A stretch of DNA of 64,000 nt, from the NCBI GenBank assembly GCA_963422645.2, contig CAXXVO010000017.1, positions 192,001-256,000 on the forward strand, given 5' to 3'. Both the position numbers and the translations under genes were made by a program. Each line of letters starts with the position of its first letter. Position 1 is the first letter of the stretch. This DNA comes from Alphaproteobacteria bacterium. GTDB taxonomy: Bacteria > Pseudomonadota > Alphaproteobacteria > UBA828. Below, in pieces: positions 2,729-57,453 of the stretch. A model generated the notes under the pieces. The model ran no database searches, was not told where the DNA came from, and was given only the letters and a program-made list of their open reading frames with translations.

Positions 2729-2930
2729 TGTCAATCGGCTTTCAATACTGACCCCCGATCGGCGTGCAAAATTGACCCCCCTGAGTGGCACGGCGGAGGT
2801 TGTCCCGGTAGCCAATAGGGGGGACCCGCGCGGCTTCGTGTGGCGCCCTGCGCTACGCGGAGCGAAGCCGCGTGGGGGGTCCCTGTTGGCCCACCGGGGC
2901 AACCGGGCCGCAAGGGAGGCCGGCGGCGGG

Positions 2931-3659
2931 TCAGGAGCGGTTCTTGAAGCGCCAGCTCTCGTTGCCGGTCTCGATGATCTCGCAATGATGGGTGAGGCGA
3001 TCGAGCAGCGCTGTGGTCATCTTGGGGTCGCCGAAGACGGATGGCCATTCGCCGAAGGCGAGGTTTGTGGTGATGACGATCGAGGTGCGCTCGTAGAGCC
3101 GGCTCATCAGATGGAAGAGCAGCTGCCCACCGGCCTGGGCGAAGGGCAGGTAGCCGAGCTCGTCGAGGATGACGAAGTCGCGGCGGACGAGCTGGTCTGC
3201 AGTGCGGCCCTGGCGTCCGGCGCGAAGCTCGGCCTCGAGGAGGTTGACCAGGTCGACGACGTTGTAGCACCGGCCGCGCGCGCCCTTGCGGATGCAGGAC
3301 CGCGCGATGGCGACGGCGAGATGGGTCTTGCCGGTACCGGTGCCGCCGACCAGCACGATGTTGCGTTTGCCCTCGAGGAAGCCGCCGCCGGCGAGCTCCT
3401 GGATCAGGGGCTCGTTGACCGGCGAGGCGGCGAAGTCGAAGTCGGCCAGCTCCTTGACCGTCGGCAGCTTGGCGGAGGCCATCTGGTACTTGATCGAGCG
3501 GGCCCTCTTGTCGGCGATCTCGACCTGCAGCAGCGTACCGATGATCTGTTGCACCGGATGGCGGCGCTTGAGCCCGTCGGCAAGGATGTCGTCGTAAGCG
3601 GCGCGCATACCTGCGAGCTTCAGCTGGGTCATCATCTCCAGCACATCATGACGCTCCAT
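2931..3659 (-). CDS. istB: IS21 helper ATPase IstB
   Basis: Walker [24 protein letters not shown]. Confidence 0.95.
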
Positions 3660-5160
3660 GACCGGCCTCCCTCAGGCTGTCGTAGCGCTGACAGTCGGCT
3701 ACCGGCTTGTGGCGAAGCTGCAGGCCCTCGGGCGTCGGGATGATTGCCGGCGGTGCCGGCTGGCGCTGCCGGGCGAGGATGTTGAGCACCACGTCGGCGC
3801 TGCAGGCACCGCAGTCGAGCGTCTCGGCACAGGCCGCCTCAACCGCCTCCAGTCCGTCCTCCAGCACCGCCGCGAGCACCTTGACGAACTGCCGGTCGCC
3901 GTCGTCGTGGCCCGCGAGCCGGGTTCGCAGGCGGCCGAGCGCGTTGGGCAACTGCCAGTCCTTGAAGGGCGCGCCATTGCGTAGCGCGCCGGGCTTCCGC
4001 GTCAGGATCGGCACGTAATGCCACGGATCGTAGACGAACCGGCCGCGCCCGAAGCTGCGGGGGTGCTCGGCAACGGTCTCGCCGTCCTGGCGGATGACGA
4101 TCCGATCGGCATAGGCCCGCACGTCCACCGGCCGGCCGACGGCGCGGGCCGCGACGCTGTACTGGTTGTTGTCGAAGCGCACCAGACAGGTCTTCGAGAC
4201 CGACACCTCGCTGGCATGGAAGCCGTCGAAGGGGCCGCGATACGCCATCAGGAAGGGCTGCTCCTCCTCGAACACCTGCCACACCGTCTTGCCCGGGATT
4301 GTCGGATGCGGATGCTTCTTGGCGTCCTCGATGCACCGATCCATCAGCCACTCGTTGATCTCGGCGTAGGAGCGGCCCCGCGGGATGGGCACGAACAGGC
4401 GGCCGCGAAGGTCACCCACCTGCTTCTCGACCTGCCCCTTCTCCCAGCCAGCCCCTGGCGTGCACGCCACAGGCTCCACCAGATGGTGCGAGCACAGCTC
4501 CTGGAAGCGGCGGTTGTAGTCCCGCTTCTTGCCCACGAAGATCGTGCTCACCGCCGTCTTCATGTTGTCGTAGATGCCCCGCCGGCAGACCCCGCCGAAG
4601 AAGCGGAAGGCACGCTCGTGCGCCTCGAAGACCATCTCCTGGCTCTCGCGGGGAAAGATCTGGACCAGATACATCCGGCTGTGGCACAGCCGCATGTGCG
4701 CCGCCTTCACCCTGGTCGTCGCGCCCGACAGACGCGCGTACTCGTGGCTCCAGTCGAACTGGTAGGCCTCGCCGGGATCGAAGATCAGCGGCACATAGGC
4801 CTGCGCCGGCGACAACAGCCGCCACCGGCGCCGCCAGGCCCTGGCATAGCGGCGAACCGCGTCATAGCCGCCCTTGTAGCCCAGCGACACAAGGTCTTCA
4901 TGAATCCGCAGAAGAGACAGCCGATCCTTGCGTGCCTTCTTCTCGTTGGCCTTCAGCTGGCGCTCAAGCTCCTCCACCCACAGCCCAAGCTTCGGCATCG
5001 GCTGGATCTTGCGCTCGTAGCTGTGCGAGGTCGCATCGCCCCGCACCACCTTGCGTATCGTGTTCTTGGAAACCCTCAAATCCCGGGCGAGCTTCTTGAT
5101 CGGAACGCCCTTCACCAGATGATCCCGACGGATCTTCGCGATCGTTTCCACAACCAGCAT
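3646..5160 (-). CDS. istA: IS21 transposase IstA
   Basis: [25 protein letters not shown] motifs; ATG at 5160. Confidence 0.95.
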
Positions 5161-5362
5161 CTCCCCCACCACCCCGTCCGTCCAAACGACGAGGTGTGTT
5201 CATGGACACAAATCCAAGGGGGTCAATTTTGGACGCCGATCACCCCCAATAGGGGGTCACTTTTCCACGCTTAACAACACATAGTCTACGACATCGACGG
5301 GGCCTCGGAATCCGCGCGGCTCGTGTCACCTAAAATCAGCAGAGGTCAGGAAGTCTGAGTCT

Positions 5363-7739: not shown

Positions 7740-8849
7740 ATGAACATGCCAACGATGAAAATGCACCTCGACCTGCTGCCCGATTTCCTGCGCGGCACCG
7801 CCTTTCTCGGCACTGGCGGCGGCGGCGATCCCTATGTCGGCGGGCTGATCCTGCGCCAGAAGCTGGAGGAAGGCGCCGACATCACGATCAAGGACCCGAT
7901 GGAGCTCGACGACGACGACTTCGTCGTCTCGGTCGCCAACATGGGCGCGCCGACCGTGATGGTCGAGAAGATCCCGAGCGCGCACGCCATGGTGGAGTGC
8001 CTGCGCTCGATCGAGCACGAGCTGGGCCGCACGGCCACCGCCCTGATCGCCGCCGAGGCCGGCGGCATCAACGGCACGCTGCCCATGGTGATCGGCGCCA
8101 TGACCGGGCTCCCGGTGGTGGACGGCGACGGCATGGGGCGCGCCTTCCCCGAGCTACAGATGTGCACCTTCGGCGTCTACGGTGTGCCTGCGTCTCCCAT
8201 CGTGCTGCGCGACGAGCACGGCAACGAGGTCATCGTGCGCGCCCGCAGCAATCTCGAATCCGAGTGGTTCGCACGGGTGGTGTGCACCCGCATGGGCACA
8301 AAGTCGGAGATCGCGCTCTACGCCATGTCGGGCAAGGAGGCGAAGGAGACCGGCGTGCTCTACACCACGACGCTCGCCATGGAGATCGGCCGCTCCATCC
8401 GCGAGGCGCGCGAGACCCAGAGCGACCCCTTCGCCGGGCTCCAGCACTACTTCCAGACCTCCCGCGACAAGCGCTTCTGCGCGGTGCTCTTCGAGGGCAA
8501 GGTGGTGGACCTCCTGCGCGAGACAACCAGCGGCTGGGCCATCGGGCGGGTGATCTTCGAGGGCATCGGCACGAACACGGGGCAGCAATTAGAGGTACGC
8601 TTCCAGAACGAATTTCTGGTCGCTCAACAGGGCGAGCGCACGCTCGGCATGGTGCCGGACCTGATCTGCATCCTCGATCAGGAGAACGCGGAGCCGATCA
8701 CCACCGAGGGGCTCAAGTACGGCCAGCGGGTGCGCGTGGTGGGGGTCAGTGTGCCGCCGGTGATGCGCACGCCCGAGGCGCTCGAGGTGTTCGGCCCCAA
8801 GTATTTCGGGATCGCCGACGTCTACACGCCAATCGAAGAGCTGGTCTGA
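7740..8849 (+). CDS. DUF917 family protein
   Basis: LGTGGGGDP, EAGGIN, DGDGMGRAFPELQM, FQNEFL, PDLI motifs; AGGAG RBS; usual partner of the upstream hydantoinase-like gene. Confidence 0.9.
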   Translation: MNMPTMKMHLDLLPDFLRGTAFLGTGGGGDPYVGGLILRQKLEEGADITIKDPMELDDDDFVVSVANMGAPTVMVEKIPSAHAMVECLRSIEHELGRTATALIAAEAGGINGTLPMVIGAMTGLPVVDGDGMGRAFPELQMCTFGVYGVPASPIVLRDEHGNEVIVRARSNLESEWFARVVCTRMGTKSEIALYAMSGKEAKETGVLYTTTLAMEIGRSIREARETQSDPFAGLQHYFQTSRDKRFCAVLFEGKVVDLLRETTSGWAIGRVIFEGIGTNTGQQLEVRFQNEFLVAQQGERTLGMVPDLICILDQENAEPITTEGLKYGQRVRVVGVSVPPVMRTPEALEVFGPKYFGIADVYTPIEELV

Positions 8850-9052
8850 GCGCCGCGCGGCCGAACTTCGACCCGCACCTAAAACACCTCTCCCTGTCCC
8901 ATATGTCCGCTACGATCATAGCATACTGTAATTGCAGCCACTTTGAATTGTCAGGCGCTATCTCGCAAGCGTATCGTCAGCGGATTCATTGCAACGCTTG
9001 CGCTTTCCTGCGCGGCTTCGTCGCTGCCGGCCTGCGTATTCGTTCGGTATCC

Positions 9053-9174
9053 GTAAGCGTTCGTTCAGGCCGTGGAAGGGTACGCCGGCATTGTGTCCGC
9101 TCAAACGCATTCCCGACCGCGACCGCTGAGACTCTAGCGATTGAGGGGTAACCATCCGGCGTAGGCCGCCTGTA
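9053..9174. mobile_element. Two tandem IS66-like terminal stubs
   Basis: GTAAGCGTTCGTTCAGGCCG at 9053 and GTAACCATCCGGCGTAGGCCG at 9148 resemble GTAA-starting IS66 IRs; no transposase remains. Confidence 0.5.
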
Positions 9175-9185
9175 TGTTGTTAAGC
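9175..9185. repeat. Left half of an IS21 terminal IR split by IS110 (continues at 10894-10913)
   Basis: TGTTGTTAAGC joined to GTGGAAGATTGACCCC matches the IS21 copy-1 IR TGTTGTTAAGCGTGGAAAAGTGACCCC at 25 of 27 positions. Confidence 0.8.
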
Positions 9186-9289
9186 TTCCACCGGCGCGGC
9201 GCTCCGGCTCGGTCGCGGGAGTAACGGGGGCTTGTGTCTGCGACGCCTCGGTCGTGAACTGGCGGCGGGTGGGGTGAAGAGGCCGTTCG

Positions 9290-9425
9290 TGCACTGGCGT
9301 GCTGTAGCGGCACCCGCTGTTAAGCTTGGCCCGAACCATTTTGTCGGCTCCGGTCACTGATGGCGCGGGTTTCCCGCGACCTCGTTCAAGAGAATGGGAC
9401 TTCGACCATGGTTCCTCCCCGCTCG
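9290..9425 (+). ncRNA. Putative bridge RNA of the IS110 element (boundaries approximate)
   Basis: TGTTAAG at 9318-9324 equals the target left arm plus core; TCAAGAG at 9386-9392 equals the donor left arm plus core; each is followed by a TGG...CCA hairpin. Confidence 0.6.
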
Positions 9426-9455
9426 CGACGGAGATGAAAGGCGGGAGGATGTTCC

Positions 9456-10874
9456 ATGGCGCGCAAGTCTCGAAGAACCCGTCGCCTCAGGGTGGTGAAC
9501 CCTGACTGCGCAGGGATCGACATCGGCAAGGACCGGCACTTCGTGGCGGTCGAGGCGGAACGCAGCGATGAGCCGGTGCGTTCGTTCGGCTCCTTTACCC
9601 GCGATCTGGCGGCGATGGCGGCGTGGCTGGCGTCGTGCGGGGTGACGAAGGTCGCAATGGAGTCGACCTCGGTCTACTGGATCCCGGTCTACGAGACGCT
9701 GGAGCGCGCGGGCTTCGAGGTGATGCTGGTGCCGCCGCGCATGACGAAGCAGATCGGCGGGCGCAAGAGCGACGTGCTGGACTGCCAGTGGATCTGGCAG
9801 CTGATGTCCTACGGTCTGCTGCGGGGAGCGTTCCGTCCGGGCGACGAGGTTTGCCCGCTGCGCTCCTACGCCCGCCAGATGAGGCGGCTGACCGAGGACC
9901 GCTCCCGCTGCGTCCTGCACATGCAAAAGGCGCTGACCGAGATGAACGTCAGGCTCGACTCGGTGATCGCCAACATCACGGGACTGACCGGCCAGCGCAT
10001 CCTGCGCGCGATCGTCGACGGCGAGCGTGACCCGGAGCGCCTGGCGACGCTCCGCCACCGGGGCATCAAGGCCGACGCCGATACGATCGCCGCGAGCCTT
10101 CAGGGGACGTGGCGCGAGGAGCATCTCTTCGCCCTCGAACAGGCCATGCAGCGCTACGACTTCCTGACCCGGCAGATCGACGACTGCGAGGCCCGGGTGA
10201 TGGCCGAGGTCGAGCGCCTGACACCGCCGGACGATCCCCCGGAGGGCGGTGCACCGGACCCTGCCCCCGGCACGACCTCGGACACCGCGTCGGGCCGCTC
10301 CGCGAACGCCGCAACCAACGACACCGGCAAGGAGGGCATCCAGCCCCTGGCGTTGCGCAAGATGATGGGCGTCGACCTCACCGCGATCCCCACCGTCGGT
10401 CCCGGTACCGCACTGGTGATCGCCTCGGAGATCGGCCCGGACTTCTCCGCCTTCCCCTCCGCTCAGCACTTCTGCTCCTGGCTTGCGCTCGCGCCGGGAA
10501 CCAGGATCAGCGGCGGCAAGAATCTCCCCGGCAAGTCGCCGAAGGCGGTCAACCCCGTCGGACAGGCCCTGCGCTTGGCGGCCATGGCCGCGCGCCGCAG
10601 CCAGACCTTCATCGGCGCCAAGCACCGCGCAAGGCTCGCCCGAATGGACACCCCCGTCGCGATCAAGGCGACCGCCCGCGAACTCGCCTGTCTGATCTAC
10701 CTCATGGTGACCGAGGGCCAGGAATACGTCGAGCAGGGCATCGGCGCCTACGAGAAGCGGCGCCTCAACAGAAAGTTCGCTCATCTCGACCGCCAAGCCC
10801 AAAAGCTCGGGTTCCAACTCATCCCGAAAACGCAAGGAGAGGAAAAACAGAACCCAATGCCGTCAATCGCTTAG
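9456..10874 (+). CDS. IS110-family DEDD recombinase/transposase
   Basis: GIDIGKD, MESTSVYW, KSDVLD (DEDD); Tnp domain LAPGTRISGG; GGGAGG RBS. Confidence 0.95.
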   Translation: MARKSRRTRRLRVVNPDCAGIDIGKDRHFVAVEAERSDEPVRSFGSFTRDLAAMAAWLASCGVTKVAMESTSVYWIPVYETLERAGFEVMLVPPRMTKQIGGRKSDVLDCQWIWQLMSYGLLRGAFRPGDEVCPLRSYARQMRRLTEDRSRCVLHMQKALTEMNVRLDSVIANITGLTGQRILRAIVDGERDPERLATLRHRGIKADADTIAASLQGTWREEHLFALEQAMQRYDFLTRQIDDCEARVMAEVERLTPPDDPPEGGAPDPAPGTTSDTASGRSANAATNDTGKEGIQPLALRKMMGVDLTAIPTVGPGTALVIASEIGPDFSAFPSAQHFCSWLALAPGTRISGGKNLPGKSPKAVNPVGQALRLAAMAARRSQTFIGAKHRARLARMDTPVAIKATARELACLIYLMVTEGQEYVEQGIGAYEKRRLNRKFAHLDRQAQKLGFQLIPKTQGEEKQNPMPSIA

Positions 10875-11068
10875 GCATCTGTTACTCAAGAGCGTGGAAG
10901 ATTGACCCCTGATTGGAGATGCCGTAATGGGGCTTGGCGCCGGCGTGCAGCGTCTCGGCCTGTCGCGATGACGGCGAATCGGTTGTCGTTGCCCTTACAC
11001 GCGTAGCGTGTTCACGGGGTCTTGCCGCAAGGCGCGCCCCAATTCCTCTGGAGGAAAGGGCAACGACA

Positions 11069-12109
11069 ATGGACGTCTGTATCGGGCTGGATGTATCGCT
11101 GGCAAGCACGGCGGTTTGCGTTCTCGACGAGAAGGGCAAGATCGCGACCGAGGCGCAGGTCGCCAGCACGCCTGAAGCGCTGGTTGGGTTCCTGCACAAG
11201 CTGCCGCACGAGATCACCGCGATCGGTCTCGAGGCCGGTCCCTTGTCCCACTGGTTGCACAAGGGAATGACCGACGCCGGCTTCGAGGCCGTGTTGATGG
11301 AGACCCGGCAGGTAAAGGGTGCGCTGAAGGCCATGCCGATCAAGACCGATCGCCGGGACGCCGAGGGCATCGCACGGCTGTTGCTGATGGGGTGGTTTCG
11401 GCCGGTGCACTGCAAGTCGGTGTCATCGCAAGAGATGCGAGCCCTCCTGACCTCGCGCAAGTCCGTGCTGGACGCGATCATCCGCCTGGAGGTCTCGCTG
11501 CGCGGCGTCCTGCGTAACTTTGGCCTGAAGCTGGGCCTGATCTCGAAGGGCCGCTATGAGGCCCGAGTGCGGGAGTTGGTCGCCGGCAACGCGATGCTGG
11601 AAGCGGCAGCCGAACCGATCCTGGGCGCGCGGGCGGCCCTGCGCCGCGAGTTCGCCGAGCTGGAGAAGCTGGTCCGCACTCTGGCAAGGCAAGACAGGGC
11701 ATGCCGCCTGTTGATGACCATGCCGGGCGTGGGGCATGTCATAGCCCTGACCTTCAAGTCCGCGATCGACGACCCGGAGCGGTTCCGAAGATCGAAGGAT
11801 GTCGGCCCCTGGGTAGGGCTGACGCCGGCGCGGGAGCAGTCCGGGGAGAGGGATATTGTCGGCCGGATCACCAAGGCCGGCGATGCCGGTCTGCGCGCGG
11901 CTCTTTACCAAGCCGCAACGGTGATGCTGAACCGCACAGGGCCGAACTGGCTGAAGGCTTGGGCGCTACGTTTGGCGAAGCACAGGGGCAAGAAGCGCGC
12001 GACCGTTGCCTTGGCCCGGCGCATCGGTGTTGTGCTTCACCGAATGTGGCGGGATGGAACCGAGTTCCGCTTTACGCGCGAGGAAGCGATGGCGCTTCGG
12101 ACGGCATAG
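11069..12109 (+). CDS. IS110/IS1111-family recombinase
   Basis: IGLDVSL, LEAGPLS, KTDRRDA, GLTPAREQSGE; ATG at 11069. Confidence 0.95.
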   Translation: MDVCIGLDVSLASTAVCVLDEKGKIATEAQVASTPEALVGFLHKLPHEITAIGLEAGPLSHWLHKGMTDAGFEAVLMETRQVKGALKAMPIKTDRRDAEGIARLLLMGWFRPVHCKSVSSQEMRALLTSRKSVLDAIIRLEVSLRGVLRNFGLKLGLISKGRYEARVRELVAGNAMLEAAAEPILGARAALRREFAELEKLVRTLARQDRACRLLMTMPGVGHVIALTFKSAIDDPERFRRSKDVGPWVGLTPAREQSGERDIVGRITKAGDAGLRAALYQAATVMLNRTGPNWLKAWALRLAKHRGKKRATVALARRIGVVLHRMWRDGTEFRFTREEAMALRTA

Positions 12110-12939: not shown

Positions 12940-13704
12940 TCAGCTTGCGGTCTTGTTCCTGCGTGCACGGCTCTGGCTGAGGCGGTAGCTGTCGCCGTTC
13001 ATCTCGAGGATGTTGACGTGGTGGGTGAGACGATCGAGGAGCGCCCCGGTGAGGCGCTCGGAGCCAAAGGTCTCGGTCCATTCGTCGAAGGGGAGGTTGG
13101 AGGTGATCAGGGTGGCGCCCCGTTCGTAGCGCTGGGAGACCAGCTCGAACAGCAACTCGGCGCCGGTCTTGCTCAGCGGCACGAAGCCGACCTCGTCGAT
13201 GATCAGCAGCTTGAGACTTGCCAGCTGCTTCTGCAGCCGCAGCAGTCGTCATTCGTCACGCGCCTCCATGAGCTCATGCACCAGCGCCGCTGCGGTGATG
13301 AAGCGCACGCTCAGCCCCTTCTGGCAGGCGGCCAGTCCGAGCCCCAGGGCGACATGGCTCTTGCCGGTGCCCGATGGGCCGAGGGCGATGACGTTCTCGC
13401 GCCGCTCGATCCATTCGCAGCGCGCCAACTCCAGCACCCGCGGCTTGTTCAGCGCGGGCATGGCCTTGAAGTCGAAGCTGTCGAGGCTCTTGGCGAGCGG
13501 GAACTTCGCCGCCTTGATGCGCCGCTCGACCATGCGCCGTTCGCGCTCGATCAACTCCAGCTCCGCCAGCCGGGCCAGGAACTGGATATGATCCAGGCCC
13601 TCGGCCGCGCACTGGTGCGCCACTTTCTCGTATTGGCGCAGGAAGGTCGGCAGCTTCAGGGCCTTGAGGCGGTGCGCCAGCAGGATGTGGGGCGTGTCCG
13701 TCAT
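12940..13704 (-). pseudogene. istB: istB with an internal TGA at 13249-13251
   Basis: GPSGTGKSH...LMEARDE*RLLRLQKQLASLKLLIIDEVGF; the frame continues after the stop. Confidence 0.9.
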
Positions 13705-15071
13705 GCCGCGTCCTCCGACAGCAGGCACATGTAGCTGGCCGCCGAGGTCCTGCCGACGGTAGCCTTCGGCAGATAGGGGTAGACATCGAGGTCGAGCTTC
13801 GGCGGGCGCTTCTCGAGGCGGCACAGCACCAGGTGCTTGACCGCGTCGAAGCCTATGGCGCCCAGGCGCAGGGCATCCTTCACTGCGGCGTGGAGATCCT
13901 CCAGCCCGAAGCTCTCCAGCAGCCGCAGGACCTGCACGTACTCCCGCCGCCCCGCCTTGAGCGCGCGTGCCTCCATCAGGCGGCGCAGGGTCTGGAAGGC
14001 GGGCGGCAGGTCCCATCCGGCGAGCGGCGCTGCCTGGTCCAGGGCGCCGATCTTCTGCTCGATCAGGGGCAGATAGTGGATCGGCTCGAAGATCATGTCC
14101 TCACGCTCATAGGACCGGGGATGGCGGGCGATGACGTCTCCGCCACAGCCGATCACCACTCGATCGACGTAACCGCGTACCCAGACGTCACGATGGCCAT
14201 AGGCCACCGGCACCGAGTAGTCGTTGGTCCGATAGCGAACCAGAGACTGCGAGCTGACCTGGCCGGGAGCCTGGTCACAGGCCTCGAAGGGCGTAGCCGG
14301 CGGCGCGGCCATGGCCGCCACATCCCGCGCCAGGCGCTCTCCGATGGTCTCGCGGTGTCCGCGCAGGATATCGCCCTGGCGGCTGTGGCATTGCTCCTCG
14401 AGCCGCAGGTTGAACTCTTCCCAGCTCGCAAACCGTGGCAGCGGCACCATGAAGTTGCGCCGGGCCAGGATGCGCGACACCAGGCAGCGGTCGTTGTCGT
14501 AGAGAACCGATCGGGGAACCCCGCCGAAGAAGGCGAAGGCATGCACATGCCCGTCCATCCACGCCTCGGCCGTCGCCGCAGGGTAGGCCCGCACGTAGCA
14601 GGCGTCGCTGTGCGGAAGATCGAACACGAAGAAGTGCGCCTTGCGCGCGATACCCCCGATCACCGCCCGCGCCTCGCCGAAGTCCGCCTGCCCATGCCCC
14701 GGCGGATGGATCAGCGGCACGAACATCTCTCGCCGCCGGCGCCGATGCTCGCGCACATGATCCTTCACAATCGTGTAGCCGCCGCTGAACCCGTGCTCGG
14801 CCCGAAGACGGTCGAAAATGCGCTTCGCCGTGTGCCGCTGCTTGGGCAGCTGCTCCAGATCGTCCCGCAGCCACCCGTCGATGATCTCGATGAACCCGTC
14901 CAGCTTCGGACGCCGAAGCGGCGCCGTCCGCCGATAGCCCGGCGGCGCCGAAAACTGCAGCATCTTCTTCACGCTCTCGCGTGAAATCCCGAAGTGACGC
15001 GCCGCAGCCCGCTCACTCATCCCGTCCCGGCAGGCGAGACGGACCTTCCGATAAAGTTCCACGGTATGCAT
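13701..15071 (-). pseudogene. istA: istA with a probable in-frame internal deletion
   Basis: YDNDRCLVSRIL runs directly into ARRNFMVP, skipping the KGxVE segment that carries the catalytic Glu (junction near 14465). Confidence 0.75.
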
Positions 15072-15364: not shown

Positions 15365-15570
15365 CCCGAGCTGCGCTTCGGCGCGCCGCGAGCGACGTCC
15401 GTCCTCACCACCCGCAGGTGGCTCCGCGTGCCGGAAAAACGATGATCCGTCAGCGCTTCGGAGTCAGCCCCTCGTTTGACGCCGATCGGTGAGTCAAGTA
15501 GTGTTTTTCTTGGCACTCAAGCACGCGTCAATGGGGCGGTGCGCCTCCACGAGGATGGAGGTGTTTGATG

Positions 15571-17449
15571 GTAACTGCCCAGGTTCTTGCTGTGAAAATT
15601 CTCTGGGATTCGGCACAACGCTACCCACGCGACGCCCGTGTGCTCCTCTGGGGTCGCCGGGTTTCACAGCTCACGATGCCCCTCTTGCGGACTGCGACCG
15701 GTAAGCTACCCCGATGTGGCCCGAAGTCCGCCCGCGCGACGGGCACCGATTTTCATTCTATGGGGTGGTCCAGCACGGCGTCGACCATGATCGTTTATGA
15801 GAATGGCTCCGCTGTTGGAGAACCCGTGCCAGGTGAGCTTACGCGCACTTGACGGTGGCGATGAGCCGATCCGATGGGCTGGTCAGGGCTTCGATGATAT
15901 TCCAGCCCTGCTTTCTGGCGGTGGTGATGACGCTGCGCAGGATGGCGAAGTTCTCGGCCCCCTGCGCGGACCGGAAGCCCCCGGAGATCTTCTGGCGCAG
16001 CTTCATCATCCGAAGGTCGCGCTCGGCCTCGTTGTTCGTGAACCCGACCTCGAGGTCGATCAGGAACCGGAGCACCGCGCATTTGTGGTCGCGCAGCCTC
16101 AAGGCCAGATTGTGACCGATCCTTCGCTTCCGGCGCTTCTTCCTCTTGCCAGGCGAGAACGGTGGTTGGCTCTCGTGAAAGGCCAGCGCATCGGCGATGA
16201 TCTCGTCGTATCGGCGCTCGATCAGCGCCACAAGCCTCGCCGGAACGGCGATATCCTTGTCCAGCGCGATGCGGGCGGCGCGATTGGCTCGGCGCAGGAG
16301 CTGCTGCATCCGCCGGGCCCAAGCCTCCCCTTCGATGTCCACCAGCGCCTGCAACTCCCGCAGGTGATGGGCGTTGCACAGGCCGTGCTCCACCCCTTCC
16401 ATCGCGAAGTACGGCTTCCAGTGATCGTGCACGACGATGCCGGAGACACCCGAGAGCAGGGCGCCGCGCTTGCCGCTGACCCGGTACGCCGCCAGCAGCG
16501 GCGTGCAGATCACATGAAGCCACTGCGTCTGACCGCCGATCCGCAAGCCGGTCTCGTCCATGTGTTTCACCCGCGCCGTGCCCGCCGCCAGGTCCTGTAT
16601 GTGCAAGGCCGCGTCCCGCAGCCGCTCGGCCGCCCTCTCGCTCATCGTCGCCAACGTCGCAGCCGTCACCGGCGCGCCGAAGAGCTCGGCCATCACCTGC
16701 GACAGCCGATCCTCCGGCAGGAAGTGAGCGTGCTGAAGGTAGACCGCCACCCCGGCAATGCGCGGGCCGTACTGCACCGGCGCCGACACCCCGTCGGGGA
16801 ACGCCGCCCGGGTCACCGTCCCGCAATGCCCGCAGCACTTGGCATGCGCCCGGTGCTCGGTCACCTCCAGGGGGCTCGGCTCGGGCAGATCGAACACCTG
16901 GCGGGCGACGGGCGTTCCCGCCCTGGCCGCGTCCGAAAGCGGCGAACCGCATCCCTTGCAGGAAGCCGGGACGTGATCCTTCACCCGATCCGGGTGATCG
17001 GCGCGGCGCAGCGTCTTGCCCTTGTGGCCGGGCTGGCCACCGGGCTTGCGGCCCGATTTGCCGCGCAGGCTTCGGGTTCGCCGCTTCGAATTCGGCTTCC
17101 TCAGCCCATCGCTCGAAGGCGGCTTGCCGCTGTTGAGGCCGAGACGGCGCTCCAACTCCTCGATGCGCTCGACGAGACGCGCGACTTGCTCTTCCAGCCG
17201 CGCGTTCTGCTGCCGAAGCCAGGCATTTTCCTCCCGAAGCCGGGCGTTCTCCTCCTCCAGGCGGGCGATCTTCTGCGCGGGCGTTTCGGGCGCTGCTCCC
17301 GTCGAAGGGCCGCGCGGCGACTCGGGATTGCTCATGTCGTTGTTGAGTCATTTCCCGAAATTCCCGTCAAGCCCTTTCCACCAACTCCGAACGAGAAACG
17401 CCTCAATCCACTGGCCCAAAATGACAAATCAGACGACCTGGGCAGTTAC
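15571..17449 (-). mobile_element. IS66-family single-ORF element, copy 1 (1879 bp)
   Basis: IRs GTAACTGCCCAGGT and ACCTGGGCAGTTAC; 8-bp TSD GTTTGATG at 15563-15570 and 17450-17457. Confidence 0.95.
15839..17335 (-). CDS. IS66 transposase
   Basis: Coiled coil, KPPSSD, zinc finger, HMDETG, TNNEAERDLR. Confidence 0.95.
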   Translation of the reverse strand: MSNPESPRGPSTGAAPETPAQKIARLEEENARLREENAWLRQQNARLEEQVARLVERIEELERRLGLNSGKPPSSDGLRKPNSKRRTRSLRGKSGRKPGGQPGHKGKTLRRADHPDRVKDHVPASCKGCGSPLSDAARAGTPVARQVFDLPEPSPLEVTEHRAHAKCCGHCGTVTRAAFPDGVSAPVQYGPRIAGVAVYLQHAHFLPEDRLSQVMAELFGAPVTAATLATMSERAAERLRDAALHIQDLAAGTARVKHMDETGLRIGGQTQWLHVICTPLLAAYRVSGKRGALLSGVSGIVVHDHWKPYFAMEGVEHGLCNAHHLRELQALVDIEGEAWARRMQQLLRRANRAARIALDKDIAVPARLVALIERRYDEIIADALAFHESQPPFSPGKRKKRRKRRIGHNLALRLRDHKCAVLRFLIDLEVGFTNNEAERDLRMMKLRQKISGGFRSAQGAENFAILRSVITTARKQGWNIIEALTSPSDRLIATVKCA

Positions 17450-17454
17450 GTTTG

Positions 17455-24001: not shown

Positions 24002-24203
24002 TGTCAATCGGCTTTCAATACTGACCCCCGATCGGCGTGCAAAATTGACCCCCCTGAGTGGCACGGCGGAGGTTGTCCCGGTAGCCAATAGGGGGGACCC
24101 GCGCGGCTTCGTGTGGCGCCCTGCGCTACGCGGAGCGAAGCCGCGTGGGGGGTCCCTGTTGGCCCACCGGGGCAACCGGGCCGCAAGGGAGGCCGGCGGC
24201 GGG

Positions 24204-24932
24204 TCAGGAGCGGTTCTTGAAGCGCCAGCTCTCGTTGCCGGTCTCGATGATCTCGCAATGATGGGTGAGGCGATCGAGCAGCGCTGTGGTCATCTTGGGG
24301 TCGCCGAAGACGGATGGCCATTCGCCGAAGGCGAGGTTTGTGGTGATGACGATCGAGGTGCGCTCGTAGAGCCGGCTCATCAGATGGAAGAGCAGCTGCC
24401 CACCGGCCTGGGCGAAGGGCAGGTAGCCGAGCTCGTCGAGGATGACGAAGTCGCGGCGGACGAGCTGGTCTGCAGTGCGGCCCTGGCGTCCGGCGCGAAG
24501 CTCGGCCTCGAGGAGGTTGACCAGGTCGACGACGTTGTAGCACCGGCCGCGCGCGCCCTTGCGGATGCAGGACCGCGCGATGGCGACGGCGAGATGGGTC
24601 TTGCCGGTACCGGTGCCGCCGACCAGCACGATGTTGCGTTTGCCCTCGAGGAAGCCGCCGCCGGCGAGCTCCTGGATCAGGGGCTCGTTGACCGGCGAGG
24701 CGGCGAAGTCGAAGTCGGCCAGCTCCTTGACCGTCGGCAGCTTGGCGGAGGCCATCTGGTACTTGATCGAGCGGGCCCTCTTGTCGGCGATCTCGACCTG
24801 CAGCAGCGTACCGATGATCTGTTGCACCGGATGGCGGCGCTTGAGCCCGTCGGCAAGGATGTCGTCGTAAGCGGCGCGCATACCTGCGAGCTTCAGCTGG
24901 GTCATCATCTCCAGCACATCATGACGCTCCAT
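24204..24932 (-). CDS. istB: IstB ATPase
   Basis: Same protein as copy 1. Confidence 0.95.
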
Positions 24933-26433
24933 GACCGGCCTCCCTCAGGCTGTCGTAGCGCTGACAGTCGGCTACCGGCTTGTGGCGAAGCTGCAGGCCC
25001 TCGGGCGTCGGGATGATTGCCGGCGGTGCCGGCTGGCGCTGCCGGGCGAGGATGTTGAGCACCACGTCGGCGCTGCAGGCACCGCAGTCGAGCGTCTCGG
25101 CACAGGCCGCCTCAACCGCCTCCAGTCCGTCCTCCAGCACCGCCGCGAGCACCTTGACGAACTGCCGGTCGCCGTCGTCGTGGCCCGCGAGCCGGGTTCG
25201 CAGGCGGCCGAGCGCGTTGGGCAACTGCCAGTCCTTGAAGGGCGCGCCATTGCGTAGCGCGCCGGGCTTCCGCGTCAGGATCGGCACGTAATGCCACGGA
25301 TCGTAGACGAACCGGCCGCGCCCGAAGCTGCGGGGGTGCTCGGCAACGGTCTCGCCGTCCTGGCGGATGACGATCCGATCGGCATAGGCCCGCACGTCCA
25401 CCGGCCGGCCGACGGCGCGGGCCGCGACGCTGTACTGGTTGTTGTCGAAGCGCACCAGACAGGTCTTCGAGACCGACACCTCGCTGGCATGGAAGCCGTC
25501 GAAGGGGCCGCGATACGCCATCAGGAAGGGCTGCTCCTCCTCGAACACCTGCCACACCGTCTTGCCCGGGATTGTCGGATGCGGATGCTTCTTGGCGTCC
25601 TCGATGCACCGATCCATCAGCCACTCGTTGATCTCGGCGTAGGAGCGGCCCCGCGGGATGGGCACGAACAGGCGGCCGCGAAGGTCACCCACCTGCTTCT
25701 CGACCTGCCCCTTCTCCCAGCCAGCCCCTGGCGTGCACGCCACAGGCTCCACCAGATGGTGCGAGCACAGCTCCTGGAAGCGGCGGTTGTAGTCCCGCTT
25801 CTTGCCCACGAAGATCGTGCTCACCGCCGTCTTCATGTTGTCGTAGATGCCCCGCCGGCAGACCCCGCCGAAGAAGCGGAAGGCACGCTCGTGCGCCTCG
25901 AAGACCATCTCCTGGCTCTCGCGGGGAAAGATCTGGACCAGATACATCCGGCTGTGGCACAGCCGCATGTGCGCCGCCTTCACCCTGGTCGTCGCGCCCG
26001 ACAGACGCGCGTACTCGTGGCTCCAGTCGAACTGGTAGGCCTCGCCGGGATCGAAGATCAGCGGCACATAGGCCTGCGCCGGCGACAACAGCCGCCACCG
26101 GCGCCGCCAGGCCCTGGCATAGCGGCGAACCGCGTCATAGCCGCCCTTGTAGCCCAGCGACACAAGGTCTTCATGAATCCGCAGAAGAGACAGCCGATCC
26201 TTGCGTGCCTTCTTCTCGTTGGCCTTCAGCTGGCGCTCAAGCTCCTCCACCCACAGCCCAAGCTTCGGCATCGGCTGGATCTTGCGCTCGTAGCTGTGCG
26301 AGGTCGCATCGCCCCGCACCACCTTGCGTATCGTGTTCTTGGAAACCCTCAAATCCCGGGCGAGCTTCTTGATCGGAACGCCCTTCACCAGATGATCCCG
26401 ACGGATCTTCGCGATCGTTTCCACAACCAGCAT
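24919..26433 (-). CDS. istA: IstA transposase
   Basis: Same protein as copy 1. Confidence 0.95.
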
Positions 26434-26552
26434 CTCCCCCACCACCCCGTCCGTCCAAACGACGAGGTGTGTTCATGGACACAAATCCAAGGGGGTCAAT
26501 TTTGGACGCCGATCACCCCCAATAGGGGGTCACTTTTCCACGCTTAACAACA

Positions 26553-55460: not shown

Positions 55461-55521
55461 AGGGGCCGGCTCGCGATGCGAGCCGGAGCGAGCGCCCGCC
55501 GCCTGAGGGCAATGAATAAAG
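55461..55521. repeat. Structured intergenic repeat, copy B (IS66 inserted in its AT-rich tail)
   Basis: CCGGCTCGC-GAT-GCGAGCCGG hairpin followed by GCCTGAGGGCAATGAATAAAG. Confidence 0.7.
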
Positions 55522-57409
55522 GTAACTGCCCAGGTTCTTGCTGTGAAAATTCTCTGGGATTCGGCACAACGCTACCCACGCGACGCCCGTGTGCTCCTCT
55601 GGGGTCGCCGGGTTTCACAGCTCACGATGCCCCTCTTGCGGACTGCGACCGGTAAGCTACCCCGATGTGGCCCGAAGTCCGCCCGCGCGACGGGCACCGA
55701 TTTTCATTCTATGGGGTGGTCCAGCACGGCGTCGACCATGATCGTTTATGAGAATGGCTCCGCTGTTGGAGAACCCGTGCCAGGTGAGCTTACGCGCACT
55801 TGACGGTGGCGATGAGCCGATCCGATGGGCTGGTCAGGGCTTCGATGATATTCCAGCCCTGCTTTCTGGCGGTGGTGATGACGCTGCGCAGGATGGCGAA
55901 GTTCTCGGCCCCCTGCGCGGACCGGAAGCCCCCGGAGATCTTCTGGCGCAGCTTCATCATCCGAAGGTCGCGCTCGGCCTCGTTGTTCGTGAACCCGACC
56001 TCGAGGTCGATCAGGAACCGGAGCACCGCGCATTTGTGGTCGCGCAGCCTCAAGGCCAGATTGTGACCGATCCTTCGCTTCCGGCGCTTCTTCCTCTTGC
56101 CAGGCGAGAACGGTGGTTGGCTCTCGTGAAAGGCCAGCGCATCGGCGATGATCTCGTCGTATCGGCGCTCGATCAGCGCCACAAGCCTCGCCGGAACGGC
56201 GATATCCTTGTCCAGCGCGATGCGGGCGGCGCGATTGGCTCGGCGCAGGAGCTGCTGCATCCGCCGGGCCCAAGCCTCCCCTTCGATGTCCACCAGCGCC
56301 TGCAACTCCCGCAGGTGATGGGCGTTGCACAGGCCGTGCTCCACCCCTTCCATCGCGAAGTACGGCTTCCAGTGATCGTGCACGACGATGCCGGAGACAC
56401 CCGAGAGCAGGGCGCCGCGCTTGCCGCTGACCCGGTACGCCGCCAGCAGCGGCGTGCAGATCACATGAAGCCACTGCGTCTGACCGCCGATCCGCAAGCC
56501 GGTCTCGTCCATGTGTTTCACCCGCGCCGTGCCCGCCGCCAGGTCCTGTATGTGCAAGGCCGCGTCCCGCAGCCGCTCGGCCGCCCTCTCGCTCATCGTC
56601 GCCAACGTCGCAGCCGTCACCGGCGCGCCGAAGAGCTCGGCCATCACCTGCGACAGCCGATCCTCCGGCAGGAAGTGAGCGTGCTGAAGGTAGACCGCCA
56701 CCCCGGCAATGCGCGGGCCGTACTGCACCGGCGCCGACACCCCGTCGGGGAACGCCGCCCGGGTCACCGTCCCGCAATGCCCGCAGCACTTGGCATGCGC
56801 CCGGTGCTCGGTCACCTCCAGGGGGCTCGGCTCGGGCAGATCGAACACCTGGCGGGCGACGGGCGTTCCCGCCCTGGCCGCGTCCGAAAGCGGCGAACCG
56901 CATCCCTTGCAGGAAGCCGGGACGTGATCCTTCACCCGATCCGGGTGATCGGCGCGGCGCAGCGTCTTGCCCTTGTGGCCGGGCTGGCCACCGGGCTTGC
57001 GGCCCGATTTGCCGCGCAGGCTTCGGGTTCGCCGCTTCGAATTCGGCTTCCTCAGCCCATCGCTCGAAGGCGGCTTGCCGCTGTTGCCGCTGTTGAGGCC
57101 GAGACGGCGCTCCAACTCCTCGATGCGCTCGACGAGACGCGCGACTTGCTCTTCCAGCCGCGCGTTCTGCTGCCGAAGCCAGGCATTTTCCTCCCGAAGC
57201 CGGGCGTTCTCCTCCTCCAGGCGGGCGATCTTCTGCGCGGGCGTTTCGGGCGCTGCTCCCGTCGAAGGGCCGCGCGGCGACTCGGGATTGCTCATGTCGT
57301 TGTTGAGTCATTTCCCGAAATTCCCGTCAAGCCCTTTCCACCAACTCCGAACGAGAAACGCCTCAATCCACTGGCCCAAAATGACAAATCAGACGACCTG
57401 GGCAGTTAC
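55522..57409 (-). mobile_element. IS66-family element, copy 2 (1888 bp)
   Basis: Same IRs as copy 1; 8-bp TSD GAATAAAG at 55514-55521 and 57410-57417. Confidence 0.95.
55790..57295 (-). CDS. IS66 transposase
   Basis: Same protein as copy 1 except for an extra NSG. Confidence 0.95.
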   Translation of the reverse strand: MSNPESPRGPSTGAAPETPAQKIARLEEENARLREENAWLRQQNARLEEQVARLVERIEELERRLGLNSGNSGKPPSSDGLRKPNSKRRTRSLRGKSGRKPGGQPGHKGKTLRRADHPDRVKDHVPASCKGCGSPLSDAARAGTPVARQVFDLPEPSPLEVTEHRAHAKCCGHCGTVTRAAFPDGVSAPVQYGPRIAGVAVYLQHAHFLPEDRLSQVMAELFGAPVTAATLATMSERAAERLRDAALHIQDLAAGTARVKHMDETGLRIGGQTQWLHVICTPLLAAYRVSGKRGALLSGVSGIVVHDHWKPYFAMEGVEHGLCNAHHLRELQALVDIEGEAWARRMQQLLRRANRAARIALDKDIAVPARLVALIERRYDEIIADALAFHESQPPFSPGKRKKRRKRRIGHNLALRLRDHKCAVLRFLIDLEVGFTNNEAERDLRMMKLRQKISGGFRSAQGAENFAILRSVITTARKQGWNIIEALTSPSDRLIATVKCA

Positions 57410-57453
57410 GAATAAAGTATCAGTGAGGCCTTGACCGCCGCGGCGACTCCACT

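Follow-up and report, generated by a model that had tools for sequence, protein, structure and literature searches.

What directs one insertion sequence (IS) into the end of another? The question is raised by a 64,000-nucleotide stretch of an alphaproteobacterial genome (Alphaproteobacteria bacterium, lineage UBA828; GenBank assembly GCA_963422645.2, contig CAXXVO010000017.1, positions 192,001 to 256,000), called the window below, in which an IS110-family element, here named element A, splits a terminal repeat of the IS21 type. The window belongs to a 5.9-Mb assembly of 23 contigs. From comparison with its copies and relatives, we conclude that 9185-10892 is very probably an autonomous IS110-group insertion sequence with a bridge RNA encoded in its 5′ non-coding end. 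Element A is an added member of the known IS110 bridge-RNA group, not a separate kind of system, and it is a case of one insertion sequence exploiting the ends of another.

The boundaries of element A are fixed by three full copies, one partial copy and two left-end fragments in the genome, by more than 20 copies in a related metagenome-assembled genome (MAG), and by head-to-tail junctions in that MAG, where right end, AG and left end are joined directly. Positions 9175-9185 of the window read TGTTGTTAAGC, and the sequence from 10894 onward reads GTGGAAGATTGACCCC, with copies of the dinucleotide AG at 9183-9184 and 10891-10892. In the lineage of the window the left flank and the right end share AGC; across 25 relatives the sharing is limited to AG, and the next base, C, begins every left end, so that the core is AG and the element runs from 9185 to 10892. 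A first-pass annotation of this DNA had proposed an IS110 element with an AG core, sitting in an IS21 inverted repeat and spanning 9175-10913. Domain matches and the joined flanks, which match IS21 ends, agree with the placement; the copies and relatives confirm the core, and TGTTAAG and TCAAGAG do read as described at 9318-9324, 9386-9392 and 10886-10892. The location of the span holds, but its boundaries do not, as they take in both halves of the split repeat; the other copies in the genome have exactly the boundaries given here. With a left end of 271 nt (9185-9455), a right end of 18 nt (10875-10892), no terminal inverted repeats and a 2-bp core at both junctions, element A has the layout of the IS110 group.

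Joining the two flanks of element A yields a 27-mer that matches the left ends of two intact IS21-family copies in the window with two mismatches each, as previously noted (25 of 27 identical), and 100 shuffles gave no such match. The unoccupied sites that had been placed near 5270 and 26543 are therefore present (Table 1). Both IS21 copies are 2,551 bp long and 100% identical to each other, and they are assigned to the IS21 family by an IstA transposase (Pfam rve and Mu-transposase C; NCBIfam NF033546, 285 bits) lying between terminal repeats that start with TG. Only the left IS21 repeat carries the target site, as the outer part of the right repeat has a different sequence. The genome as a whole contains 60 full IS21 copies of at least 99.88% identity and 70 uninterrupted TGTTAAG+CGTGG sites; TGTTAAG itself occurs 116 times, compared with about 158 expected from base composition. 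The split repeat in the window is itself a remnant, since a second IS110-family element starts 24 bases on and no IS21 body follows.

The full copies of element A are 99.5-100% identical and keep an intact open reading frame (ORF) and intact guides; one 77% relative is also present in the genome. All six copies and fragments have TGTTGTTAAG followed by C at the left flank, the same IS21-type terminus, which bears out the earlier proposal that the element is specialised on IS21 ends. The right boundary is identical in all four copies that have a right end. Beyond it, two copies continue with GTGGAAGATTGACCCC and the other two with ACGCTTTGTTGACCCCCC, so that identical copies adjoin GTGG... and ACGC... 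right halves. One copy (contig C5) occupies a decayed IS21, 86-95% identical, whose IstA frame is broken. At the ACGC-type sites the repeat stands alone, with no transposase within 3.4 kb; housekeeping genes adjoin one of these solo repeats and an integrase the other, and they are called IS21-type solely because their repeat resembles that of IS21.

The 472-residue product of the gene in element A matches Pfam DEDD_Tnp_IS110 (PF01548, E 1e-21) and Transposase_20 (PF02371, E 5.5e-12), and scores 260 bits against the NCBIfam model NF033542, ‘IS110 family RNA-guided transposase’ (cut-off 140). Among solved structures in the PDB, its relatives are the IS621 and ISCro4 transposases alone, both weak matches, with IS621 matched at E 5e-6 over two short stretches. 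The catalytic residues of IS621 are given as D11, E60, D102, D105 and S241 in the available text of its structural report (PMC11208158); in the HMMER alignment, itself a weak match, D22, E69, D106 and D109 of the element A recombinase align with the four acidic residues.

To follow the guides across relatives, we drew on a scan with one genome per species, which returned at least 439 stretches encoding related recombinases, of which 78 loci, from alpha- and gammaproteobacteria, were kept. Near-identical copies within a genome were represented by one locus each. Twenty-eight loci entered the guide test, where L064, with a variant stem, failed the expression for the donor guide and L080 that for the target guide. 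The target-guide 7-mer equals the element's own left flank plus AG without mismatch in 22 of 26 loci, with one mismatch in one and with two in three; the donor-guide 7-mer equals the element's own right end in all 27 of 27 loci. For the alignment of left ends we retained 25 relatives (13 alpha-type and 12 gamma-type, 49-94% protein identity), having dropped L066 (two mismatches and an unalignable left junction) and omitted L057 and L067, whose left ends could not be aligned. These 25 carry 16 different target guides and 8 different donor guides, and the identity of target positions -6 to -2 to RNA columns 9318-9322 is 0.92-1.00, that of donor positions -6 to -2 to columns 9386-9390 is 1.00. 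As read from these alignments, the predicted left guides change in step with flank and end, at the two positions where the first-pass annotation had put them. Such covariation of guide with flank and of guide with end is the pattern that defines the left target and left donor guides in the available text of the IS621 report (PMC11208160).

The same 25 sequences support a common RNA fold, where the structure stands for conservation seen in DNA. The RNAalifold consensus has 34 pairs in seven helices, with 97.3% of cells paired, against 36-44% when the partners are slid by one to three columns. Both sides have changed in compensation in 16 of the 34 pairs, and none of 500 shuffles reaches any of the five measures used. 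The outer helix of the target loop (9281-9284/9328-9331) has compensatory change in three of its four pairs and 100% of cells paired; that of the donor domain (9333-9339/9408-9414) has it in five of seven. Both domains share one plan: the 5′ strand ends in CAC, a hairpin follows, and the left guide is on the 3′ strand. Thus the covariation check suggested for the left-end region supports two homologous internal loops, and the order proposed for them, target loop then donor loop, agrees with the consensus. CCAT (9336-9339), for which a right guide or a simple stem had both been considered, lies in the covarying outer stem of the donor domain and is not a guide.

A sister population is visible in the related alphaproteobacterial MAG, where more than 25 copies occur, with a DNA identity of about 95%. 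Of its 23 non-tandem left junctions, 22 carry exact TGTTAAG and the remaining one has a single mismatch, and the right halves comprise at least 10 different IS21-type sequences, mostly with the TTGACCCC motif of IS21-type repeats. Thirteen of 26 MAG loci contain head-to-tail junctions in which AG links right end to left end (one of them with an extra AG); as DNA junctions these may come from circles or from dimers. They join the right end to CTCCACC or TTCCACC with no TGTTGTTAAGC between. In three of the 26 loci (L035 at 3043, L038 at 1196 and L042 at 1335), a copy is inserted exactly after the guide-coding TGTTAAG of another copy, observed as two left junctions and one right junction. These insertions provide separate evidence from nature that, to the element, the DNA encoding its guide resembles a target. 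In L038, the side downstream of the insertion is rearranged. We also noted (AG)n runs of one to about ten extra units between right end and right flank in L071, L072, L074, L075, L064, L083 and L084, and one extra AG in the dimer junction at position 1196 of L035. Such units could be added by pairing out of register at the core, given that AGAG forms the end of the donor.

What specifies the right half of the target is less clear-cut. Just ahead of the conserved CAC in the target loop lie five bases, 9287-9291 in the window, that vary among relatives, and a conserved C at 9292 lies opposite the core G. When G-U pairs are allowed, this register pairs with the right target at 76 of 120 positions over 24 unique pairs, against a null of 52.3 +/- 5.2 (0 of 20,000 permutations as high), and other registers and the right donor score 37-56 in the same test. 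Counted per family, with leading AG repeats trimmed, the result is 74.0 of 115 against 49.6 +/- 4.7 (again 0 of 20,000). In the window lineage, TCGTG pairs at five of five positions with CGTGG (three of them wobbles) and at four of five with CACGC, which accounts for the two kinds of right half found beside identical copies. Among the few sites at which close relatives differ is position 9290, where T, A and C all occur. From these sequence comparisons we consider it reasonably likely that 9287-9291 is the right target guide, short and tolerant of wobbles. The right half of the target is, in any case, specified loosely, as identical copies sit beside both GTGG... and ACGC....

Fewer indications exist for a right donor guide. 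Mean complementarity of a candidate in the gamma relatives reaches 6.0 of 9, and CCGGT at 9350-9354 could pair with left-end positions +6 to +10 in the window lineage only. The C at 9325 equals the first left-end base in the alpha clade and is inconsistent in the gamma relatives, and we claim no handshake role for it. A further candidate for the right target guide, CCCCGCTC at 9417-9424, was rejected because it pairs with the upstream GGGTGGGG as a closing stem and ignores the right targets of relatives.

Table 1. Coordinates of element A, its predicted RNA features, its target and related features of the window
Feature	Position	Strand	Remarks
Empty target site, left end of intact IS21-family copy 2729-5279	5253..5279	-	27-mer match
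Outer 10 bp of IS21-type left terminal repeat TGTTGTTAAG	9175..9184	+	Left target; AG at 9183-9184; matches intact IS21 ends
IS110-family element A	9185..10892	+	1,708 bp, counting right AG core copy (10891-10892)
Target-binding loop	9281..9331	+	Predicted internal loop between helix 9281-9284/9328-9331 and hairpin 9295-9302/9310-9316
Probable right target guide TCGTG	9287..9291	+	5′ strand of target loop; antiparallel to target +1 to +5
Left target guide TGTTAAG	9318..9324	+	Five programmable bases plus AG; 3′ strand of target loop
Donor-binding domain	9333..9414	+	Predicted helices 9333-9339/9408-9414, 9344-9346/9403-9405 and 9354-9356/9395-9397
Donor-domain hairpin	9358..9384	+	9358-9366/9376-9384 and 9367-9368/9373-9374
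Left donor guide TCAAGAG	9386..9392	+	3′ strand of donor loop; same as right end 10886-10892
Recombinase gene, 472 residues	9456..10874	+	Pfam DEDD_Tnp_IS110 and Transposase_20; NCBIfam NF033542
Short right end	10875..10892	+	Left donor sequence 10886-10890 plus core 10891-10892
Inner part of split IS21-type repeat CGTGGAAGATTGACCCCTGATTGG	10893..10916	+	Right target
Second, unrelated IS110-family element B	10917..~12542	+	ORF 11069-12109; 24 bp further inside the same repeat; right boundary approximate
Empty target site, left end of intact IS21-family copy 24002-26552	26526..26552	-	27-mer match

A number of results weigh against the reading of element A as a mobile, bridge-RNA-guided element that specifies both halves of its target. 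Single-sequence folds of 9186-9455 and 9270-9455 are no better than shuffles (z +0.91 and +0.42), which is the reason that the comparative analysis above was adopted. A scan of 8500-11500 against Rfam 15 gave no family match, and no sigma-70-type promoter was found upstream (9100-9500) or across the dimer junction of L036. Relatives of 90-96% identity spanning 9175/9183 to 10892/10893 are carried by contigs of three metatranscriptome runs from three studies, and one such contig runs on into an IS21-type flank at 10893; these contigs may stem from DNA in the libraries and are no proof of transcription. In the recombinase, S352 lies one position off the serine of IS621 in the weak HMMER alignment, apparently because of an alignment gap, as a gap-free register would align both serines. 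For the right donor guide, neither column-wise complementarity, nor sliding registers, nor analogy with the target loop gave a consistent register in the alpha clade. The proposed right target guide is noisy, with scores of 0 to 5 of 5 per case; one guide position in the MAG lineage fails to pair with any target observed there; and right targets vary widely within multi-copy families. Within the genome itself, element A sits solely in decayed or solo IS21-type ends, and the 60 near-identical young IS21 copies are all without it. Terminator scans of 9100-9500 and of the L036 dimer junction found none, and an H19_2 match in the Rfam scan was below threshold and taken as chance. Element A fits the IS110 group by every testable feature save the right donor guide and direct evidence of the RNA.

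The variability of the right targets raises an alternative for that half of the site, namely that the target is chosen by the left guide and core alone, and that the complementarity of 9287-9291 is a by-product of relatedness or composition. The occurrence of identical copies beside two different right halves speaks for it, as does the strong variation within single families, such as the four unrelated right flanks in L058-L061. No RNA column is clearly complementary to the right target (best values 0.68-0.84, with low mutual information), the 9291 register is not the top one within the gamma group alone, and recombination at half matches has been reported for IS621 in the available text of a preprint (bioRxiv 10.64898/2026.08.31.748434). 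Against this stand both permutation tests, in which 0 of 20,000 permutations matched the observed pairing, the lower scores of the other registers and of the right donor, the pairing of TCGTG with both observed right halves, and the placement of 9290 among the few sites that change between close relatives. On balance, we consider a choice by left guide and core alone to be the less likely account, though one with a real share of the probability, and we retain 9287-9291 as the probable right target guide.

A second alternative concerns activity and not targeting: element A may be a resident of this genome that no longer moves, its three identical copies having arisen by duplication or gene conversion. 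None of the 70 matching empty sites in the 60 young IS21 copies being occupied, together with the restriction of all copies to old or solo IS21-type ends and the presence of two truncated fragments, fits such a history. One would not expect from it, however, that full copies remain 99.5-100% identical with ORF and guides intact, nor would it predict the more than 25 copies, dimers and nested insertions among them, in a closely related MAG. Judging by the empty young IS21 copies, inactivity of element A in this genome is possible, but we think it rather doubtful.

It is highly improbable that the recombinase protein itself reads the IS21 repeat and that the matches in the non-coding end are coincidental. 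Many site-specific elements do rely on protein-DNA recognition, but 16 different 7-mers at one RNA position match their own left flanks, 8 match their own right ends, and elements insert into the DNA copy of their own guide. That TGTTGTTAAGC is the element's own left terminus instead of target DNA, as might be supposed because it precedes every copy in the genome, can practically be discarded: the same 11 bases run unbroken into the repeat at 70 IS21 ends that lack the element, dimer junctions do without it, and other left flanks of relatives match those relatives' own guides.

In the mechanism that we favour for element A, the 3′ strand of loop 1 (9318-9324), with the same sequence as the left target half and AG core, would recognise the target, and the 3′ strand of loop 2 (9386-9392), with the same sequence as the element's own right end and AG, would recognise the donor. 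The 5′ strand of loop 1 (9287-9291) would probably pair, G-U wobbles included, with the four or five bases right of the core. By analogy with IS621, the recombinase, with its DEDD RuvC-like and Tnp domains, together with the RNA would join the right-end/left-end junction of a circular or tandem form to TGTTA-AG-C(R)(Y)G, with strand exchange at AG. This sequence is outermost in the left terminal repeat of a whole group of IS21-type elements and of their solo or miniature derivatives, which makes element A a parasite of IS21 ends. An insertion of 1.7 kb placed ten bases inside a repeat of about 55 bp should disable that IS21 end; IstA-donor complexes have been modelled on a 55-bp repeat, according to the available text of PMC12486865. 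If invaded ends are indeed disabled, this may bear on how IS expansions are held in check.

The positions of the guides within the loops also deserve comment. Both left guides lie 3′ of their inner hairpins, and the probable right target guide lies 5′ of its hairpin, so right guides would be 5′ and left guides 3′, the reverse of what the available text on IS621 states, although layouts drawn for other elements may already show such an arrangement. We suggest tentatively, and with less confidence than for the guide at 9287-9291, that this large clade of IS110-group elements, with its alpha- and gammaproteobacterial relatives, may use loops permuted relative to IS621, with a short, wobble-rich right target guide and without a base-paired right donor guide. 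Were this true, the choice of target would rest mainly on five programmable bases plus AG. One element could then parasitise many IS21-type ends with differing right halves, its own guide-coding DNA would become a target, copies would pile up as dimers, and AG repeats would grow at right junctions, as the AGAG end of the donor pairs out of register.

Comparison with known systems places element A nearest to IS621 of E. coli, the founding bridge-RNA element of the IS110 group (Durrant et al. 2024, PMC11208160; Hiraizumi et al. 2024, PMC11208158). According to the available text of these reports, the two share a DEDD and Tnp recombinase, a long RNA-encoding left end with a short right end, a target loop followed by a donor loop, a 2-bp core at both junctions, left guides in the sense of the top strand that include the core, and a right target guide complementary to the top strand. 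Core, loop layout and right-guide strictness differ. The core is CT in IS621 and AG in element A, and the protein match is weak; in IS621 the bottom strand is described as pairing on the 5′ side and the top strand on the 3′ side, whereas element A has its left guide on the 3′ strand and its right target guide on the 5′ strand. Unlike the IS621 guide described there, the right target guide of element A pairs with only one of the two core bases, and the alpha clade alignment yielded no right donor guide. A second IS110-group element, ISPpu10 of Pseudomonas putida, also has a bridge RNA in its left end, with target guides of about 6 bases (left) and 5 bases (right), and is described in the available text as targeting the repeated REP sequence and as forming tandem and composite arrangements (bioRxiv 10.64898/2026.03.19.712850). 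Its core is CT (same preprint), whereas the Pseudomonas relatives in our set, which may or may not be ISPpu10 itself, have an AG core; they are at 51-55% protein identity and are also inserted in REP-like sequence.

Specialisation on the terminal inverted repeat of another transposon is itself not without parallel. IS4321 and IS5075, of the IS1111 group, are said to target the terminal repeats of Tn21-family transposons (reportedly in work by Partridge and Hall, 2003), a habit that element A would share. They belong to a different subgroup, for which the RNA is expected in the right end, and have long subterminal repeats, and their victims are of the Tn3/Tn21 family instead of the IS21 type. 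We found no description of IS110-family elements that target IS21 ends in the titles and abstracts searched, though ISfinder may hold a record; the permuted layout, the self-targeting and the apparent AG slippage might be new. The matches listed for a plasmid collection all bore just the label ‘IS110 family transposase’ and were at most 49% identical, and a tally put 2 of 451 records at 60-80%. As a natural example of RNA-guided transposition, the system has parts that can be read from the genome (a guide, its target and many unused targets) and a sister genome with dozens of insertions. For users of bridge recombinases, it presents a distant AG-core clade with a loop layout unlike that of IS621 and an apparently tolerant right target guide, and two side reactions are documented in nature, one in which the element enters DNA coding for its own guide and one in which the register may slip at the core.

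Shortened forms and miniature elements were also seen. Mini-elements of about 170-235 bp, in which the left end is joined to the right end without a gene, occur in L051, L052 (2903-3137) and L142 (~1459-1620); in L142, both ends of a miniature element of about 100 bp with IS21-type termini are occupied. A metagenome scan with a 15-base right-end pattern returned at least 80 loci (at least 118 stretches), and among the matches listed L142 alone is related, the remaining ones being chance matches. One left-end fragment in the genome (C18:55926-56138) stops at the base preceding the donor guide, equivalent to window position 9386, and a contig of run X17 has a loose end that shows this break and the sequence following it. 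At C7:25351-25450, two inverted TGTTGTTAAGC termini about 100 bp apart look like a miniature element with IS21-type ends; in the related MAG, similar sequences flank the element on its right.

Element B, immediately downstream of the split repeat, encodes a protein of 346 residues with support from NCBIfam NF033542 (241 bits) and from Pfam. The left end is short and the right end exceeds 430 nt, which fits an IS1111-like layout, and five further copies in the genome, in either orientation, lie at the CCCCCTATTGGGGG palindrome of IS21-type left and right repeats. Another IS110-family relative in the genome has about 30 matches (72% over about 90 bases) and recurs at a spacing of about 1,769 bp (C10:45253/47021/48790, C8:729111/730880, C8:170885/172653 and C5:477021/478790), which suggests head-to-tail arrays of two or three copies. 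Elsewhere in the window, a direct repeat of 1,890 bp and 99.5% identity joins 15570-17450 with 55521-57410. Finally, a further IS21-family pair is indicated on the minus strand at 12940-15071, with one ORF bearing an ATPase-like motif and one IstA-like ORF; the latter is 29% identical to the other IstA, and the pair points toward the split repeat, of which it is not part.

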